Assembly: GCA_027311385.1 (NCBI GenBank)
Contig: DAICZA010000001.1
Location: 5,271-69,270, forward strand
DNA from: a bacterium
GTDB taxonomy: Bacteria; Patescibacteriota; Minisyncoccia; Phycocordibacterales; Phycocordibacteraceae
Direction: 5' to 3'
Length of the DNA stretch: 64,000 nt
Part shown: positions 21,886 through 42,316 of the stretch, piece after piece
Numbering within the stretch: the first letter of the stretch is position 1
Layout: each line of letters begins with the position of its first letter
Translations under genes and position numbers: made by a program
Notes under the pieces: model-generated
The model's input: the letters and a program-made list of their open reading frames with translations, nothing else
The model's database searches: none
What the model was told of the DNA's origin: nothing

Positions 21886-21888
<3 letters not shown>

Positions 21889-21994
21889 CCCGTTAGAAGT
21901 CTTACTCATAGTCAAAAGTTATTACCGCGAATGTTTGCGTCGAAAGACCCTCGTTAGGTACTTGCCCTGGCCGCGGACTTCTAACGGGACTCAT
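21886..21994 (-). mobile_element. start-codon palindromic element, MITE-like copy 3 (109 bp) abutting proS start
   Basis: Termini ATGAG|TCCCGTTAGAAGTC ... GACTTCTAACGGGA|TGAG with TSD TGAG. Mini-ORF of about 30 codons ends at TAA 13 nt before the proS ATG. Confidence 0.55.
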
Positions 21995-22032
21995 GCGCCA
22001 CAGTATACGCCACCCTGCCAACTCGGCAAAAG

Positions 22033-27261: not shown

Positions 27262-27282
27262 TTTTTTGGTATACTCCGCCAC

Positions 27283-27407
27283 ATGAATCCCGTTAGAGAT
27301 AGCGGGCACGGCTCGCAGGGTCGATTACCTGCCGTTATTACCAATGATAACCTCGATAGGTGTTCGCGGCGTACTTTATACGCTCGTACCCTATCTCTAA
27401 CGGGATG
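27283..27407 (+). mobile_element. start-codon palindromic element, MITE-like copy 4 (125 bp) abutting def start
   Basis: 16-bp perfect terminal inverted repeat ATCCCGTTAGAGATAG/CTATCTCTAACGGGAT with TSD TGAA. 41-codon stop-free mini-ORF (MNPVRDSG...RTLSLTG) ends with TGA overlapping the def ATG (ATGA). Confidence 0.65.
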
Positions 27408-27944
27408 AAAGACATCGTACAAGACGGGGCGGAGGTGTTGCGGGATATCGCGAAGCCGGTGCCGGAGGAGCTGTTCGGCTCCGCGGAACTCGCGACGCTT
27501 ATCGCGGATATGACCAAAGCACTTGATAAGGAGCTTGAGGGCGTCGCGCTCGCCGCGCCGCAGGTTGGTGTGTCCTACCGTCTCTTCATCGTGCGGAAAG
27601 ACCGCACCCTGCCTCCCCCGCCGGAAGCTACGGAAGGTGCCGCGCTACCGCCCCCGCCGCCGCCCGAAGTGGAGGTGTACATCAATCCCGAAATCGTAAA
27701 GACCTCCCGCAAACGCGCCCGCGCCGACGAAGGGTGCCTCTCGGTGCGCGGCGTCTACGGCACGACGAATCGGCACGAACGCGTCACCATCCGCGCACGC
27801 CGCCCGGACGGTTCCCGAATTGAACGCGGCGCCGGCGGCTTGATGGCGCAGATATTTGAGCACGAGATAGACCACTTAAACGGCATTCTCTTCATTGACC
27901 ACGCCGAGCACCTCATCCAGATCCACCATGCCGCAACCGCATAA
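27405..27944 (+). CDS. def: peptide deformylase (with Pro-rich insertion)
   Basis: GVALAAPQVG, EGCLSV, HEIDHLNG motifs; insert TLPPPPEATEGAALPPPPPPEV. Confidence 0.9.
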   Translation: MKDIVQDGAEVLRDIAKPVPEELFGSAELATLIADMTKALDKELEGVALAAPQVGVSYRLFIVRKDRTLPPPPEATEGAALPPPPPPEVEVYINPEIVKTSRKRARADEGCLSVRGVYGTTNRHERVTIRARRPDGSRIERGAGGLMAQIFEHEIDHLNGILFIDHAEHLIQIHHAATA

Positions 27945-28752
27945 GTTTGTATTTTTCGGGACACCGAAAGTTGCGAGCGAGACGCTCGCGACGCTTCTCG
28001 CGCGCGAGTTCGTTCCCGCACTCGTGGTGACGTCGCCGGACGCGCCGCAAGGGCGCGGCCTCGCACTGACTCCCTCGCCGGTTCGGGTGCTGGCCGAGGA
28101 GCACACCATCCCCGTTCTCACACCGGAGACCCTTGGTGCCGAGACGATTTCCGCCATCCGCGCGCACGGGTGCGACTACGCCGTCGTCGTCGCGTACGGA
28201 AAAATATTCCCGGAAGAACTCATTTCAGTATTCCCGAAAGGCGTCCTCAACGTGCACTATTCGCTCCTGCCGAAATACCGCGGCGCGACACCGCTTGAAG
28301 CCGCATTGCTCGCGGGCGAGCGCGAAACCGGCGTGACCGTCCAGAAAATGGCGCGGGAACTGGACGCGGGCGACATCGTCGCACAGGAAGCGACGCCTAT
28401 CGCGCCGGACGAGACCGCCCGCGAGCTGCGGCCCCGGCTCATCGCACTCGGCGCACAATTACTTGCCGACACGCTCCCCGCATTTGAGCGGGGTGACCTC
28501 GCCCCGACAGTGCAAGACGCGTCGCGCGCGACGCACTCGCACAAATTAAAAAAAGAAGACGGTCTTCTTGAACTCAGCGCGCCCGCCGAGGAGAACTGGA
28601 ACAAGTACCGCGCCTACGCCGACAGCATCGGCACGTATTTCTTTGAAAACGGGAAGCGGATGAAAATAACGAGTGCGGAATTCGCCCAGGGTGTTTTCCG
28701 CGTCCTGCGCGTCATCCCCGAAGGGAAAAAAGAAACCGCGTACCGCGCCTAG
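27928..28752 (+). CDS. fmt: methionyl-tRNA formyltransferase
   Basis: FVFFGTP..., NVHYSLLPKYRGATP, C-terminal domain; overlaps def by 17 nt. Confidence 0.9.
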   Translation: MPQPHKFVFFGTPKVASETLATLLAREFVPALVVTSPDAPQGRGLALTPSPVRVLAEEHTIPVLTPETLGAETISAIRAHGCDYAVVVAYGKIFPEELISVFPKGVLNVHYSLLPKYRGATPLEAALLAGERETGVTVQKMARELDAGDIVAQEATPIAPDETARELRPRLIALGAQLLADTLPAFERGDLAPTVQDASRATHSHKLKKEDGLLELSAPAEENWNKYRAYADSIGTYFFENGKRMKITSAEFAQGVFRVLRVIPEGKKETAYRA

Positions 28753-29111
28753 CGGTCGCGGCGGAGCATATTCTTAATTGCGGAGCTGCCGCGCTTCCAG
28801 AGCCGGCGCGTGCGCCCGCGCGAGCGCCGTATCTCCGCCTCCAGCTGGCTCCTGACCCGGTCGGCGGCGCTCTCGGGAGTCGGCTTCACCGCCTCGGCAT
28901 GGAATACCGTGTCATTGATGACGAGCCGTGCGACGAGACGGCACGGCTCCGACGAGCGCCCCTCCGGCGGCGCTTCCTCCACTTCTATTTCAAGCAATGC
29001 ATTCTCCTTCTCGTCGCCGAGCAGGCGCAGCGGGGCCGCGAGCTTCTCCTCTACCAATGCTTCCGTCTCAGGCGAGAGGTGATACTTCGTTGCTTTGATA
29101 GTGATGTTCAT
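28749..29111 (-). CDS. hpf: ribosome hibernation promoting factor / RaiA family
   Basis: MNITIKATKYHLSPETEALVEEKL... typical HPF/YfiA fold. Confidence 0.7.
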   Translation of the reverse strand: MNITIKATKYHLSPETEALVEEKLAAPLRLLGDEKENALLEIEVEEAPPEGRSSEPCRLVARLVINDTVFHAEAVKPTPESAADRVRSQLEAEIRRSRGRTRRLWKRGSSAIKNMLRRDR

Positions 29112-29232
29112 CCCGTTAGAGGTAGGAAATCGGAGATTTCCGTACGATTATTGATAATGGTTTTCACCCACTGTCACATAGTTTACCACAAGACCTTAAT
29201 TACCCAAGGTTTTGACCTCTAACGGGATTCAT
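29109..29232 (-). mobile_element. start-codon palindromic element, MITE-like copy 5 (124 bp) abutting hpf start
   Basis: Termini ATGAA|TCCCGTTAGAGGT ... ACCTCTAACGGGA|TGAA with TSD TGAA; mini-ORF interrupted by TAA at codon 11 (degenerate copy). Confidence 0.55.
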
Positions 29233-29242
29233 AGGCAGGAGG

Positions 29243-29461
29243 TCAGCTACTAATGCTTACCATCTTAGCCCGAGAATGATGTCCTGTCAGTATGCGCACT
29301 GCGCCAACCGGCTTCCCGACGCGGAGCGCGACGAGCTCGCGCACGCGGGTGTTCGCGCGGTTCTGCGCTGCCGGCTCGCGGACCGCTATGAGGAGGGTCT
29401 CGCCTTTTTCTTCCACCCTCTCGCGCTTCGCGCCCGGTGTGACGAAGATTTTTATAAACAT
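29243..29461 (-). CDS. DUF167 (YggU) family protein
   Basis: MFIKIFVTPGAKRERV...GKANxxL-like pattern; start at the ATG regenerated by element copy 6. Confidence 0.7.
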   Translation of the reverse strand: MFIKIFVTPGAKRERVEEKGETLLIAVREPAAQNRANTRVRELVALRVGKPVGAVRILTGHHSRAKMVSISS

Positions 29462-29582
29462 CCCGTTAGAGACAGGGTACGGAATCTCCCTGTACGGCCG
29501 TCTTATTCGGCTTCGCACTCGACCTTATGAATATATGCATGGTGTCCATATTACCGTACTCGCTGTCTCTAACGGGAAACAT
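29459..29582 (-). mobile_element. start-codon palindromic element, MITE-like copy 6 (124 bp) between grx stop and DUF167 start
   Basis: Termini ATGTT|TCCCGTTAGAGACAG ... CTGTCTCTAACGGGA|TGTT with TSD TGTT. grx TAA overlaps the mini-ORF ATG (TAATG). 37-codon stop-free mini-ORF ends at TAA 4 nt before the DUF167 ATG. Confidence 0.6.
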
Positions 29583-29821
29583 TACTGCGGCGCGTACTGC
29601 TCGCGCAGGTAGGCGTCAATGTCTGCCGACTCATACATCTCTACGCCGCGCTCGCTATCCACGAGGTACGGCACCTGGCGCTTGCCACCGCGGGCGACCA
29701 GCTCCGCCGCAACCGCGTCGTCCGCAATATTCTTCTCATCAAACGTGAGCCCGAGCTCCGCGCCGGTATCCAGCACCTTGTGGCAGAACGGGCATCCGGT
29801 TTTTACATACAGTGTCAGCAT
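29582..29821 (-). CDS. glutaredoxin-like protein
   Basis: CPFC active site in KTGCPFCHKV, thioredoxin fold size (79 aa). Confidence 0.65.
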   Translation of the reverse strand: MLTLYVKTGCPFCHKVLDTGAELGLTFDEKNIADDAVAAELVARGGKRQVPYLVDSERGVEMYESADIDAYLREQYAPQ

Positions 29822-30919: not shown

Positions 30920-30953
30920 TCCGCGGTAGCTCAGTGGTAGAGCGGCTCGCTGT

Positions 30954-31518
30954 GGTTAAAGTTCAGAACCCGATGGTATACTGCACAGAGTATGCCAAAA
31001 GAAAAAAGAACTTATGCCGATCGTGCCGAGTATTTGCGTAAGGCCGTTTCCGAACGTCGTAAGAAACTTCGTGAAATGGCGCGCGAATACCGGGGCGGGA
31101 AATGTATGATTTGTGGTTACAAACGGTATTCGGGAGCACTTGATTTCCACCATCGAGACCCCACGAAGAAAGACTTTGGTCTTTCTGTGAAGGGACTTAC
31201 GCGATCGTGGGAGAAAATCAAAATAGAGATTGAGAAATGTGCTCTCGTGTGCGCAAACTGTCATCGCGAAATACATGCAGGCATTACGCAGCTTCCTACA
31301 GAAATGTAGACTGAAAACGAGGTGAATTCGGGGAAACCCTAACAGAGGAAATGCTGTGGGCAATCCCGAGCCAAGTCCCGAGAGTAATCAAGGGAAAGGT
31401 GTAGAGACTATCCCGCAAGGGAGTAGACCGAAAGGTCGAAGCGCCTCGCATCCGACATTTACGAAATGTAAAAAGGATGATGATATAGTCCATCCCGCCA
31501 GTAACGGCGGAACAAATG
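30954..31518 (+). ncRNA. group I intron with embedded HNH homing-endonuclease ORF
   Basis: P7-like pairing (AGACTA...TAGTCC) in the 3' core, omega-G, U at 5' splice site; ORF sits in a peripheral loop. Confidence 0.6.
30992..31309 (+). CDS. HNH homing endonuclease (intron-encoded)
   Basis: CMICGY...HHRDP...CANCHREIH: CxxC/HH/CxxCH zinc-finger HNH motif, 105 aa. Confidence 0.8.
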   Translation: MPKEKRTYADRAEYLRKAVSERRKKLREMAREYRGGKCMICGYKRYSGALDFHHRDPTKKDFGLSVKGLTRSWEKIKIEIEKCALVCANCHREIHAGITQLPTEM

Positions 31519-31716
31519 TAACGAGTTGGTCGTAGGTTCGAATCCTACCCGCGGAGCTAGAAACAGTTAGGCCCTAATGCGAAAGCATCGGGGTCTTACT
31601 GTTTCTCTTCGTCGGTAGGATTCGAAGGCCGGAGGCGGACGCGCCGAGGCGGGGTCGCGCAAAATCTCAGCAGAGATTTATGCGCGACCGAGTCCTGCTC
31701 CCGGAGCCGAGTGAGC

Positions 31717-41289: not shown

Positions 41290-41979
41290 CTATTTCCACT
41301 CAATGAGCTTCCCCGCTTTGAGTTCCATAGCATCGGCGCGGCGCACGTAGCGCCAGTTCCCTTTCGGCACGAGGAAATAATGCTTGCGTTCGGCGAGCGC
41401 GTCGGCGACGTTCCAGAGATCCGTCTCGGCGGTGAGCCACGCCGCGCCGATGCGGTCTGCCCCCGACGGGGCGCCGATGCGGTCTGCCCCCGACGGGGCG
41501 CCGATGCGGCGCATATCGAGCGGCTTGGAGTAGCACTCCAGTGTCTTCTCCCGCGTCTCGTTCATAAACCACTCGTGGAAATACGAGAGCGCGAGCTCGC
41601 GCGGCGTCCGGTACACGGGGTCGCGGAAGCGGAGCACGGCGTGATTCGTCTTGCTGATGGCGCCATAGCGCCCGCCGCGCGCATACAGCGCCACGACGTG
41701 GTCCACGTCGCCCTTCCCCATCCGCGACGACAGATTCATGATAATCGGCGGCTCGCCGTGGACCCAGAGCGCGGCGGCGGCAAGCAGAGCGCCCTCAATG
41801 CAGTGCGCCTTCTTCTCGCGCAGGACGCGGCGCGGGGACATATGCGTATCACCGCTCTTCTCCAGATTGAACGGGAGCGTGTCCAGGAAATCCTGAATCT
41901 TCGCCGGCGTAGAGAGCCGCGAGAGCGTCTCATACTCACCGCGATTGAATCCGGATTTGGCGCGAGTGAGATGCTTCAT
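41290..41979 (-). CDS. hypothetical protein (possible Cys/His hydrolase fold) containing a 27-bp tandem repeat
   Basis: Start at the ATG regenerated by element copy 7; KAHCIEGALL...DHVVALY; RIGAPSGAD x2.4. Confidence 0.4.
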   Translation of the reverse strand: MKHLTRAKSGFNRGEYETLSRLSTPAKIQDFLDTLPFNLEKSGDTHMSPRRVLREKKAHCIEGALLAAAALWVHGEPPIIMNLSSRMGKGDVDHVVALYARGGRYGAISKTNHAVLRFRDPVYRTPRELALSYFHEWFMNETREKTLECYSKPLDMRRIGAPSGADRIGAPSGADRIGAAWLTAETDLWNVADALAERKHYFLVPKGNWRYVRRADAMELKAGKLIEWK

Positions 41980-42260
41980 CCCGTTAGAGATAGGAAACGC
42001 TTCAGTCTGTTTTTTAGATATCGTTTCCCCATCCCGGTTTTTAGATACGTCTCCCGAGCCGTTGCGTCGTTTAGATTGCGGCATGCTTCGTAATATACCA
42101 GTTCGTAGGGGCGGTGGCGTTTCGTCCACCCGCGTGGGGCTGTCTGGTGCTGGCTGAAGCGTTTCCGTAAATCATTCGTGACACCGGTGTACCAATAATC
42201 ACTTGTGAGGCTTCTGATGACGTACACATAGCACATGTTGTCATCTCTAACGGGATTCAT
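41976..42260 (-). CDS. GIY-YIG nuclease (UPF0213/YhbQ-like), element-encoded
   Basis: MNPVRDDNMCYVYVIRSLTSDYWYTGVTNDLRKRFSQH...ELVYYEA...; GIY-YIG core with arm-encoded N- and C-terminal extensions (MNPVRDD..., ...FLSLTG). Confidence 0.8.
   Translation of the reverse strand: MNPVRDDNMCYVYVIRSLTSDYWYTGVTNDLRKRFSQHQTAPRGWTKRHRPYELVYYEACRNLNDATARETYLKTGMGKRYLKNRLKRFLSLTG
41977..42260 (-). mobile_element. start-codon palindromic element, full-length copy 7 (284 bp) carrying a GIY-YIG nuclease gene
   Basis: 14-bp perfect terminal inverted repeat ATCCCGTTAGAGAT/ATCTCTAACGGGAT with TSD TGAA. ORF runs from the left ATG to TGA overlapping the host ATG (ATGA). Confidence 0.7.
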
Positions 42261-42278
42261 CCCGAAATGATACCGCAT

Positions 42279-42316
42279 AAAAAGAGCGCGCCCCGAGACG
42301 GGGCGCGCTCTTTTTA
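42279..42316. terminator. bidirectional terminator (AAAAAGAGCGCGCCCCG-aga-CGGGGCGCGCTCTTTTT)
   Basis: 17-bp perfect stem with flanking A5/T5. Confidence 0.55.

Follow-up and report, generated by a model that had tools for sequence, protein, structure and literature searches.

The 64-kb stretch of Parcubacteria DNA analyzed here, further called the window, carries a small operon, grx-DUF167-hpf, in which two short elements (copies 5 and 6) occupy the start codons of two successive genes. These elements are recent and precise insertions of a mobile DNA family. They are probably non-autonomous members of a family of tiny transposable elements, the full-length form of which encodes a GIY-YIG nuclease; this explanation as a whole includes the mobilization of the elements by the nuclease and the translation of the host genes by reinitiation.

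Two Elements in One Operon

The units of the operon follow each other in the order grx, a TAATG overlap, a 115-nt element, DUF167, 10 nt, a second 115-nt element and hpf, and the genes form the co-directional string PEBP-grx-DUF167-hpf. All operon coordinates refer to the minus strand. The open reading frames (ORFs), the elements and the target-site duplications (TSDs) are the following.

29582..29821, minus strand: grx (glutaredoxin) ORF, PF00462, E=3e-10
29578..29581, minus strand: upstream TSD copy of copy 6, TGTT, seen in the sequence
29466..29582, minus strand: mini-ORF 6, 38 codons, product MFPVRDSEYGNMDTMHIFIRSSAKPNKTAVQGDSVPCL
29461..29577, minus strand: short element copy 6, 117 nt including the terminal T...A pair; core 29462-29576, 115 nt
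29457..29460, minus strand: downstream TSD copy of copy 6, TGTT, equal to bases 2-5 of the DUF167 ORF
29243..29461, minus strand: DUF167 (YggU family) ORF, PF02594, E=2e-15
29228..29231, minus strand: upstream TSD copy of copy 5, TGAA, seen in the sequence
29200..29232, minus strand: mini-ORF 5, 10 codons and TAA (29202-29200)
29111..29227, minus strand: short element copy 5, class A, 117 nt including the T...A pair; core 29112-29226, 115 nt
29107..29110, minus strand: downstream TSD copy of copy 5, TGAA, seen in the sequence
28749..29111, minus strand: hpf/raiA-type S30AE ORF, PF02482

The stop codon of grx (TAA, 29584-29582) shares A29582 with an ATG (29582-29580), which creates the TAATG overlap. 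The first-pass annotation described correctly this overlap and the stop of the mini-ORF 4 nt before DUF167, and missed the cause: the overlap is the upstream TSD copy of the ancestral grx/DUF167 junction. The upstream TGTT together with A29582 is the ancestral start codon of DUF167, which now opens mini-ORF 6. The stop codon of this mini-ORF (TAA, 29468-29466) lies within the 3′ terminus of the element and is followed by CGGG and the regenerated ATG of DUF167, the A of which (A29461) is the last base of copy 6. The core of copy 6 begins with CCCGTTAGAG and ends with CTCTAACGGG, and its perfect terminal inverted repeat (TIR) extends over 15 bp (TCCCGTTAGAGACAG / CTGTCTCTAACGGGA).

The second insertion is placed as had been noted, with the stop of DUF167 10 nt before the ATG of copy 5 and with copy 5 abutting hpf. 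The TGA stop is followed by cctcctgcct and an ATG (29232-29230); the upstream TGAA with A29232 is the ancestral hpf start codon, 10 nt past the DUF167 stop. The last base of copy 5, A29111, provides the A of the regenerated hpf ATG. Copy 5 has a perfect terminal repeat of 13 bp and a subterminal hairpin, GGAAATC-TCC-GATTTCC, one nucleotide before the 3′ repeat arm. As RNA, copies 6 and 5 fold with -50.4 kcal/mol (z=-5.1) and -47 kcal/mol (z=-5.2), respectively. The protein families place the gene starts behind the elements: residues 2-70 of DUF167 align with positions 3-75 of PF02594, so that its N-terminus falls at the start of the profile, and residues 3-101 of hpf align with positions 1-87 of PF02482. 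The name HPF/RaiA is the one used by the source itself for some of the 505 hpf homologues.

It had been proposed that stop/start overlaps chain all five translation units of the operon. This holds for four of them, which are joined by overlap or near-overlap, and fails for the fifth, as mini-ORF 5 terminates 88 nt upstream of hpf and is not coupled to it. Judged from the sequence, the link from grx through mini-ORF 6 to DUF167 appears intact, the one from DUF167 to mini-ORF 5 appears close (10 nt), and the one from mini-ORF 5 to hpf appears broken. Therefore, the translation of hpf may be impaired or may proceed by another route. A consensus scan finds neither a promoter nor a terminator inside the elements, which is weak evidence for a possible single polycistronic mRNA.

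Empty Sites in Related Genomes

The comparison with the orthologous operon, which the first-pass annotation had proposed as a check, identifies both elements as insertions. In seven relatives with hpf 78-88% identical (loci L125-L128 and L137-L140), grx-DUF167-hpf is compact, contains no element and presents clean empty sites. The two elements do lie, as had been stated, on successive start codons of one gene string. For copies 4, 5, 6 and 7 of the window, the difference between the filled and the empty site is exactly the element and 4 bp. The ancestral TAATG of grx and DUF167 is kept in L126 (...aaataATGTTCATAAAA). The empty site of copy 5 reads ...gttgacctttctcacc/ATGAACATCACT in L125 and ...gctgacctctttcact/ATGAATATCACC in L126, where the DUF167/hpf junction is ...ctttcact/ATGAATATCACC. 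At def, L125 has an empty site for copy 4 (gattttttggtatactgcgccac/ATGAAAGAA), which is filled in the window, where 116 nt separate ...ccgccacATGAAT from ATGAAAGAC; the empty site of copy 7 in L277 is ...gtgcggtatcctaacggg/ATGAAGCGC. Such presence/absence polymorphism is found for copies 4, 5 and 6 against L125-L128 and L137-L140, and for copy 7 against L276 and L277.

Both operon insertions are younger than the split from all sampled relatives. Among the assemblies with identical hpf, all four carry copy 5, and three carry copy 6, the contig of the fourth (L004) being too short; between the three contigs that cover the region completely there are 0-2 mismatches over 1073 nt. The intact mini-ORF of copy 6 and the decayed one of copy 5 had been read as a contrast between a young and an old insertion, useful for dating, and this reading is not supported by the comparison. 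Both copies have perfect TSDs and perfect repeats of 13-15 bp, both are missing from every relative examined (hpf identity up to 88%), and both are virtually unchanged across the near-identical assemblies. Moreover, copies 5 and 6 belong to different structural subclasses, and the state of the mini-ORF is thus not a clock.

The empty sites bear directly on the possibility that the elements are conserved cis-regulatory leader RNAs (upstream ORF or attenuator hairpins) which evolved in place and are immobile. The very stable closing helices directly upstream of start codons and the enrichment of an open frame through the element would suit such RNAs. However, the elements are missing at the same junctions in all close relatives, the genes behind them are unrelated, target duplications flank them, and the same termini occur in several phyla. 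The Rfam 15 covariance models give no element match at the gathering score in the window, and nothing relevant even at E≤10 within 29050-29650. Such an origin is extremely improbable.

Anatomy of the Family and Its Target

The terminus of the elements, searched as a 10-mer with one mismatch allowed, has 17 matches in the window against 3.4 expected, and none of 100 shuffles reaches 17, which shows that the pattern is not due to chance. The window contains seven complete elements of 78-275 nt with mutually dissimilar interiors. Each of them abuts the start of a gene that is verified by Pfam or is a long ORF, and all seven are flanked as ATGNN-Y[CCCG...CGGG]R-TGNN. For DUF167, hpf and four of the other five genes behind elements, Pfam sets the N-terminus at the downstream start codon; a 229-aa gene has no Pfam match, and the match of an aminoacyl-tRNA synthetase begins at residue 95.

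The family was further characterized by a scan of GTDB, with one genome per species, for two 10-mers spaced 70-100 nt apart, which matched at least 120 contigs. The matches listed belong to many lineages of Patescibacteria and also to Omnitrophota, Planctomycetota, Desulfobacterota, Elusimicrobia and others. The statistics below rest on 144 copies, taken from 120 GTDB contigs and the window. The TIR comprises 13 bp, Y-CCCGTTAGA-RNN, and the length of perfect pairing from the end inward peaks sharply at this value (73/144). The base outside CCCG...CGGG is complementary between the two ends in 139 of 144 copies, mainly as T..A in Patescibacteria and as C..G elsewhere. The next four bases form direct repeats in 98 copies, which defines the 4-bp TSD; inverted flanking repeats, found in 4/144 only, were rejected as a general feature. 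The variable repeat positions (1, 11, 12 and 13) match between the arms in 116/144 copies and form 28 types, in comparison with a shuffle mean of 8. Thus, the complementarity of the arms itself is conserved, and not only a sequence bound by a protein.

Complementary arms are also known from REPINs, and the elements could be REPIN-like single-stranded DNA hairpins moved by a Y1 (RAYT/IS200-type) transposase. The size of the hairpins, around 100 nt, and the compensatory variation that keeps their arms complementary agree with REPINs. A Y1_Tnp gene is present near the operon in L125, and palindromic units of ~27 nt with the termini occur in one element from a viral contig, two other short palindromes carrying a partial motif. 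Y1 transposition, however, leaves no TSD, and here the target-derived 4-mers are of at least 16 kinds, with no covarying internal guide. The L125 locus has none of the family termini, and no Y1 gene flanked by the family repeats was seen, which makes this origin highly improbable. An IS200/IS605-style insertion directed by a guide was rejected as well, since the 4-mers vary without a covarying guide and the empty sites show a true duplication. Another rejected candidate is the integron attC site, the polarity of which (5′-RYYYAAC ... GTTRRRY-3′) is reversed here on both strands (GTTAGAG...CTCTAAC), and the neighbors are housekeeping genes.

The reconstructed target is R/TRRA (logo R-T-R-A/G-A), mostly A/TG(A/G)(A/G) in Patescibacteria, and the target 4-mers include TGAA, TGGA, TGAG and TAAA. 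The last base of the element (A or G) and the duplicated TG.. rebuild the ATG or GTG of the host. At start-codon targets, the upstream duplicate retains the original ATG of the host with its promoter or initiation context. Strictly on start codons are 56 of the 92 Patescibacteria copies and all seven copies of the window. After removal of the elements, the window has 417 ATGRR sites, of which 43 are non-coding and ~18 are gene starts; 5 of the ~18 gene starts are occupied (by 5/7 elements), in contrast to 0/43 non-coding sites. A preference for the motif together with the neutrality of non-coding DNA is insufficient to explain the bias toward start codons.

Outside Patescibacteria, the flanks are typically GTAAAC/.../GTAAA, and many copies stand on the stop codon of a long upstream ORF. 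Copies away from start codons that lie exactly on the stop codon of an ORF of 266-741 codons are found in L016, L034, L062, L067, L090, L096, L106, L109 and L052, in both non-Patescibacteria and Patescibacteria genomes. Where the TSD of such copies is intact, it contains TAA, TAG or TGA (e.g., L016, L034, L062 and L090). The element family seems to survive at gene boundaries in general.

The Long Form and Its Nuclease

The short copies have a partner with the same ends, whose GIY-YIG nuclease is a candidate for the mobilizing enzyme. This full-length form of ~275-280 nt contains nothing but the gene for a nuclease of 85-94 aa, from the UPF0213/YhbQ-Slx1 branch, and the first and last codons of this gene are the terminal repeats. 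Its stop codon is usually the TGA of an ATGA overlap with the rebuilt start of the host gene, and many copies begin at the duplicated ATG of the host. An example of such a form is copy 7 of the window, listed here with the remaining copies.

12769..12885, minus strand: short copy 1, core 12770-12884, 115 nt, at the ftsI/PBP start, TSD TGCG
14124..14203, minus strand: short copy 2, core 14125-14202, 78 nt, at the rsmH/mraW start
21888..21989, minus strand: short copy 3, core 21889-21988, 100 nt, at the start of a class II aminoacyl-tRNA synthetase gene, TSD TGAG
27288..27405, plus strand: short copy 4, core 27289-27404, 116 nt, at the def start codon
41979..42255, minus strand: long copy 7, core 41980-42254, 275 nt, same termini, TSD TGAA
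41976..42260, minus strand: ORF of copy 7, 93-aa GIY-YIG nuclease, PF01541

Copy 7 stands on the start codon of the 229-aa gene (41290-41979), downstream of a TATCAT -10-like box. Its ORF begins at the duplicated host ATG (42260-42258) and ends with a TGA (41978-41976) inside an ATGA overlap with the regenerated host ATG. It matches positions 1-71 of the 78 positions of PF01541 with E=5e-16 and 59.2 bits, against a cutoff of 22.6. The nuclease consists of the catalytic domain only, without a DNA-binding domain. Its homologues form at least 3,805 clusters at 90%, in Patescibacteria, Omnitrophota, Planctomycetota and Desulfobacterota, typically of 94-95 or 85-86 aa. Most of them start with M[NSDI]PVRD, which corresponds to the TSD and the 5′ repeat, and end with ...KRFLSLTG, which corresponds to the 3′ repeat, the stop codon being the TGA of the flank. 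In 26 sequences, the catalytic residues Y13, Y24-T25-G26, R32 and E70 are invariant and N84 is kept in at least 90%. The proportion of nonsynonymous differences (pN) in the long-form ORFs (n=42) is 0.23, and that of synonymous differences (pS) is 0.78.

The AlphaFold model (pLDDT, the predicted local distance difference test, of 81) has a three-strand sheet and helices. Among solved structures, the nearest in sequence and in predicted fold are the UPF0213 protein BH0048 (1ZG2, E=0.0014) and Slx1 in Slx1-Slx4 complexes with branched DNA (6SEH, 7CQ2 and 4XM5); I-TevI and UvrC are predicted to rank behind 1ZG2 and Slx1 as fold matches. The solved members of this GIY-YIG branch cut branched or hairpin DNA.

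The metagenome sample of long forms comprises, among the matches listed, 118 copies with flanks, of which 82 are full-length, and the following counts refer to these listed copies. GIY-YIG homology is found in 92/118, the remainder being composites of short copies, and no other cargo between the termini was seen in the 118. In 50/82 full-length copies, the flank supplies the stop codon (TGA or TAA at +1), and 52/82 abut an ATG or GTG. Where they abut a long host ORF, 42 are oriented in sense and one in antisense. In L141, ...ATGAAT is followed by 278 nt and then by ATGAAATACTTAGGA, and the downstream ATG is the start of RuvX. A different solution to the same coupling problem is observed in an Omnitrophota long form (L096, 6919-7198, minus strand), the nuclease of which has its own Shine-Dalgarno-like GAGGA and an internal ATG, and the ORF extends beyond the 3′ repeat and meets the next gene in a TAATG overlap. 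As for candidates for recent transposition of long copies, the L188 pair was rejected as a segmental duplication, and P0157 and P0207 were rejected because each occurs in a single genomic context across many samples.

The content of the long form bears on whether the short copies are ordinary MITEs (miniature transposable elements with inverted repeats), moved by a DDE transposase encoded elsewhere (e.g., IS1380/piggyBac-like), with the GIY-YIG gene as a passenger or a domesticated addiction module. A TIR combined with a short TSD of fixed length is the classical mark left by DDE cut-and-paste transposition, strand-transfer chemistry is not known for GIY-YIG nucleases, and the 13-bp CCC repeat with a 4-bp TSD resembles piggyBac (PMC10140906). 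On the other hand, in ~2 Mb of loci there is no transposase bounded by the termini and none recurrent nearby, and no classical transposase was found in the long elements of 124 loci. The recurrent ORF cluster that was checked near the elements is a PilB/GspE-type ATPase by sequence reading, other recurrent ORFs being left unannotated. The sole coding content between the termini is the GIY-YIG gene or, in the remainder, composites, and the termini are themselves part of the coding sequence of the nuclease. The target is TRRA and not TTAA, and four repeat positions covarying in 28 types would be unexpected for DDE ends, which are read by a protein. A DDE transposase is, consequently, an unlikely source of the mobility.

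The long form could also be a free-standing homing endonuclease gene, spread by homing only, in which the empty allele is cut and the gene is copied in through recombination between genomes, with the short copies as its remains decayed in place. GIY-YIG genes are classical homing endonucleases, the single genomic context of P0157 and of P0207 would agree with homing, and GIY-YIG domain genes are among those predicted to be horizontally transferred from Patescibacteria (PMC12455944). However, seven different host genes are occupied in 64 kb by copies with dissimilar interiors of 78-275 nt, a 4-bp TSD at each site is not a product of homing, and the nuclease has no DNA-binding domain to provide a long cognate site. 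In addition, copies 5 and 6 postdate the split from the relatives with 88% hpf and yet are already short. Decay of homing genes in place is thus very unlikely.

Short Forms and Possible Translational Coupling

The short and long forms share the 13-bp ends. In the class A short copies, copy 5 among them, the subterminal hairpin GGNNNNN-loop-N'N'N'N'N'CC is retained too; its arms are, in the long form, the L-R-K-R and K-R-F-L codons. Among the start-codon copies, this hairpin is gene-proximal in 16 cases and gene-distal in 3. Of 140 short interiors, 7 contain TACGGAAA, the sequence of the L-R-K codons in the long form, in comparison with 0.36 expected, an enrichment of ~20-fold. Such sequence relations support, for class A only, a probable descent of the short form from the long one by internal deletion.

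The reading frames across the element were compared in the start-codon copies of the family. Read in the frame of the upstream ATG, 29/73 copies have no stop in the interior, in comparison with 6-15/73 for the other five frames and 11% for shuffles. Such stop-free frames are consistent with coupling. In the window, the mini-ORF of copy 1 is open up to the TAA of the terminus, and copy 4 can be read from the upstream ATG without a stop as far as an ATGA overlap. The terminal pair of copy 2 is C...G, which regenerates a GTG start, and the element, with a length of 78 nt that is divisible by 3, stays in the rsmH frame. Translational bypassing between matched take-off and landing AUG codons was also considered and rejected, as it is unneeded given the TSD and is contradicted by the open-frame enrichment.

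Proposed Mechanism and Points Against It

In the proposed mechanism, the nuclease, taken as structure-selective from its protein family, would recognize the hairpin or cruciform formed by the complementary ends. It would introduce cuts staggered by 4 nt at the ends and at the RTRRA targets, and repair or ligation by the host would finish the transfer. The short copies, such as 5 and 6, which retain the ends alone or, in class A, the subterminal hairpin as well, would be moved in trans. After the insertion, ribosomes from the old host ATG would translate through the element and, by termination-reinitiation, begin again at the rebuilt start.

Several points weigh against this explanation. We infer both of its dynamic parts, the mobilization by the GIY-YIG protein and the host expression by reinitiation. 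GIY-YIG nucleases act by hydrolysis and are not known to carry out strand transfer. The host ATG is usable as a start in 13/82 of the long forms listed, the others having an internal ATG, and the TSD is intact in 31/82. No near-identical long copies were found at different loci of one genome. An nhmmer search with the long-form profile gives no significant match in the repeat-trimmed short interiors, and the global alignment of short with long forms is no better than for shuffled controls, for which reason a general descent of the short from the long forms is not claimed. Early stops occur in 41/73 start-codon copies, so that coupling cannot be universal. Finally, the occupancy of start codons could be partly a matter of survivorship and not of targeting.

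A broader reading can be put forward tentatively, its parts taken jointly being held at slightly less than an even chance. The elements would represent a previously unrecognized class of prokaryotic transposable elements, the sole protein of which is a UPF0213/Slx1-type GIY-YIG nuclease of ~90 residues. Such elements would have no promoter and often no start or stop codon of their own, taking both from the duplicated host context A/TGA, and would hand the ribosomes to the host gene via the ATGA overlap. Their non-coding derivatives would reside on about 1/10 of the start codons in the Parcubacteria window, and the family would have crossed between Patescibacteria, Omnitrophota, Planctomycetota and Desulfobacterota.

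Relation to Known Systems

The elements are best filed as TIR/TSD transposable elements of a new variety, and there is substantial but unproven support for a new transposon class in which a minimal GIY-YIG nuclease is the driving enzyme. With its ~275 bp, the full-length form would be, to our knowledge, well below the smallest autonomous insertion sequences. No prior description of such a bacterial transposable element was found in the searchable literature, the coverage of which is incomplete, so that a description elsewhere is possible; the only related mention is that of GIY-YIG domain genes among the genes transferred from Patescibacteria (PMC12455944).

The short copies resemble the Correia/NEMIS elements of Neisseria and the Rickettsia palindromic elements (RPEs), which are also multicopy inverted-repeat sequences of ~100-150 bp, form co-transcribed hairpins and tolerate translation. 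RPEs insert in frame into ORFs (PMC10969869), and copy 2 of the window is an in-frame case of this kind. Correia elements duplicate TA, in contrast to the 4-bp TSD of this family, and the autonomous partners of RPEs are unknown, whereas here a full-length partner with the same ends encodes the nuclease. Unlike in both systems, the last base of the element rebuilds the host start, and the occupancy of start codons is the rule in Patescibacteria. In a 2024 review of prokaryotic MITEs, the term "start codon" is absent by keyword search (PMC10969869).

PiggyBac has TIRs of 13-14 bp, a TTAA TSD and asymmetric subterminal repeats, and IS1380 is its prokaryotic relative (PMC10140906). The family shares with them 13-bp repeats starting with CCC, a 4-bp TSD of the T..A type and asymmetric subterminal repeats. 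It differs from them in having no DDE/DDD transposase (118 long copies listed), in its RTRRA and not TTAA target, in the outermost and three inner repeat positions that vary yet covary, and in its size of ~275 bp versus 1.5-2.5 kb.

Free-standing GIY-YIG homing genes (T4 seg, I-TevI-type) are likewise selfish, encode a GIY-YIG product only and are wedged between host genes. In contrast to them, the elements have TIRs, TSDs, non-coding derivatives and many unrelated loci per genome, and their nuclease has no DNA-binding domain and a fold nearer to UPF0213/Slx1 than to I-TevI. The closest match by sequence and structure is provided by the stand-alone URI-domain proteins UPF0213/YhbQ/YazA and the eukaryotic Slx1. 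Genes of the YhbQ type count as ordinary host genes, present in single copy and of unknown function. Unlike them, the gene described here has inverted repeats at its borders, encoded in its own first and last codons, and behaves as an insertion. Slx1 is described as a structure-selective nuclease and as the founder of the family to which YhbQ and YazA belong (PMC7017083). The similarity to REPIN/RAYT systems extends to the multicopy hairpins of ~100 nt with complementary arms; the presence of a TSD, the lack of a Y1 transposase and the defined 13-bp termini conserved across phyla set the family apart.

If the nuclease mobilizes the elements, GIY-YIG would join the short list of chemistries that drive prokaryotic transposition. 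Such an element would be a case of extreme parasitic economy, in which a single minimal catalytic domain borrows the start codon of its host. This would give a function to a part of the large uncharacterized UPF0213/YhbQ-like family. The elements account for thousands of ~90-aa annotations as "GIY-YIG nuclease family protein" or "excinuclease ABC subunit C" in the genomes of candidate phyla. The 13-bp ends with obligatory complementarity of the arms and the 4-bp RTRRA target suggest a compact, structure-guided system of DNA insertion. In ultra-small genomes, about 1/10 of the genes may have their translation start rewired through an inserted upstream ORF and a hairpin. Gene calling is also affected: mini-ORFs do get called, and host genes may be lengthened into the elements, as the longest ORFs reach into them here.

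Further Observations on Copies and Neighboring Genes

Boxes resembling a -10 element precede three of the occupied genes in the window, 6-7 nt before the ATG: TATACT at def (27265-27287, plus strand), TATACT at the aminoacyl-tRNA synthetase gene (21995-22015, minus strand) and TATCAT at the 229-aa gene (42261-42280, minus strand), where L277 has TATCCT. The box of def is conserved in the relatives L125-L128. These three genes appear to be leaderless, so that the inserted elements would sit 5 nt inside the transcript. All three sites keep a stop codon at the host ATG or at most 16 nt from it.

At copy 2 (14124-14208, minus strand), the retained ATG lies 1 nt after the mraZ stop and would extend the N-terminus of RsmH by 28 aa, MDPVRDFGKGSSSSRRRLLPLERNISNG. 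Native sequences that resemble the 3′ end of the element occur beside two sites. Near copy 1 (12891-12902, minus strand), an ftsL-like ORF ends with CGC-TAA-CGGGCC-ATGCGT, and the empty site of copy 7 in L277 (1484-1500) reads tatcCTAACGGG/ATGAAG. Such sequences may reflect coincidence, target preference or old footprints.

Among the copies outside the window, a short copy is nested inside the YYEAC/L codons of a long copy in L010 (3760-4165, minus strand), and several metagenome contigs (L221, L183 and L155) have tandem or nested runs of ends. In L021 (2167-5033), two inverted short copies bracket the gene of a 686-aa secreted protein; this gene was considered as a transposase and rejected, as it is not one. 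The IMG/VR viral contigs L129-L136 gave eight matches to the two-terminus pattern, all without TSDs and uninformative. Inside the element of L129 there are two ~27-nt palindromic units with the family termini, and L134 and L136 have a shorter palindrome around the motif. The Y1_Tnp (IS200-like) gene of L125 (125-802), the closest relative, encodes 225 aa and lies 2.3 kb upstream of the element-free operon, in a locus without CCCGTTAGA-type repeats.

The genes def and fmt (27405-28752, plus strand) are separate overlapping ORFs in the window, L125, L128 and L138. In L126, L127 and L139 they form a single ORF of 448-449 aa with Pep_deformylase and Formyl_trans_N domains. At 30922-31557 (plus strand), the window contains a tRNA gene, not called by ARAGORN, which is split by a group I intron; its 5′ half is TCCGCGGTAGCTCAGTGGTAGAGCGGCTCGCT, and its 3′ half is ...GGTCGTAGGTTCGAATCCTACCCGCGGAG. 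Rfam RF00028 matches the intron with 79 bits (31222-31511), and an HNH endonuclease-like ORF is carried by the intron at 30992-31309.

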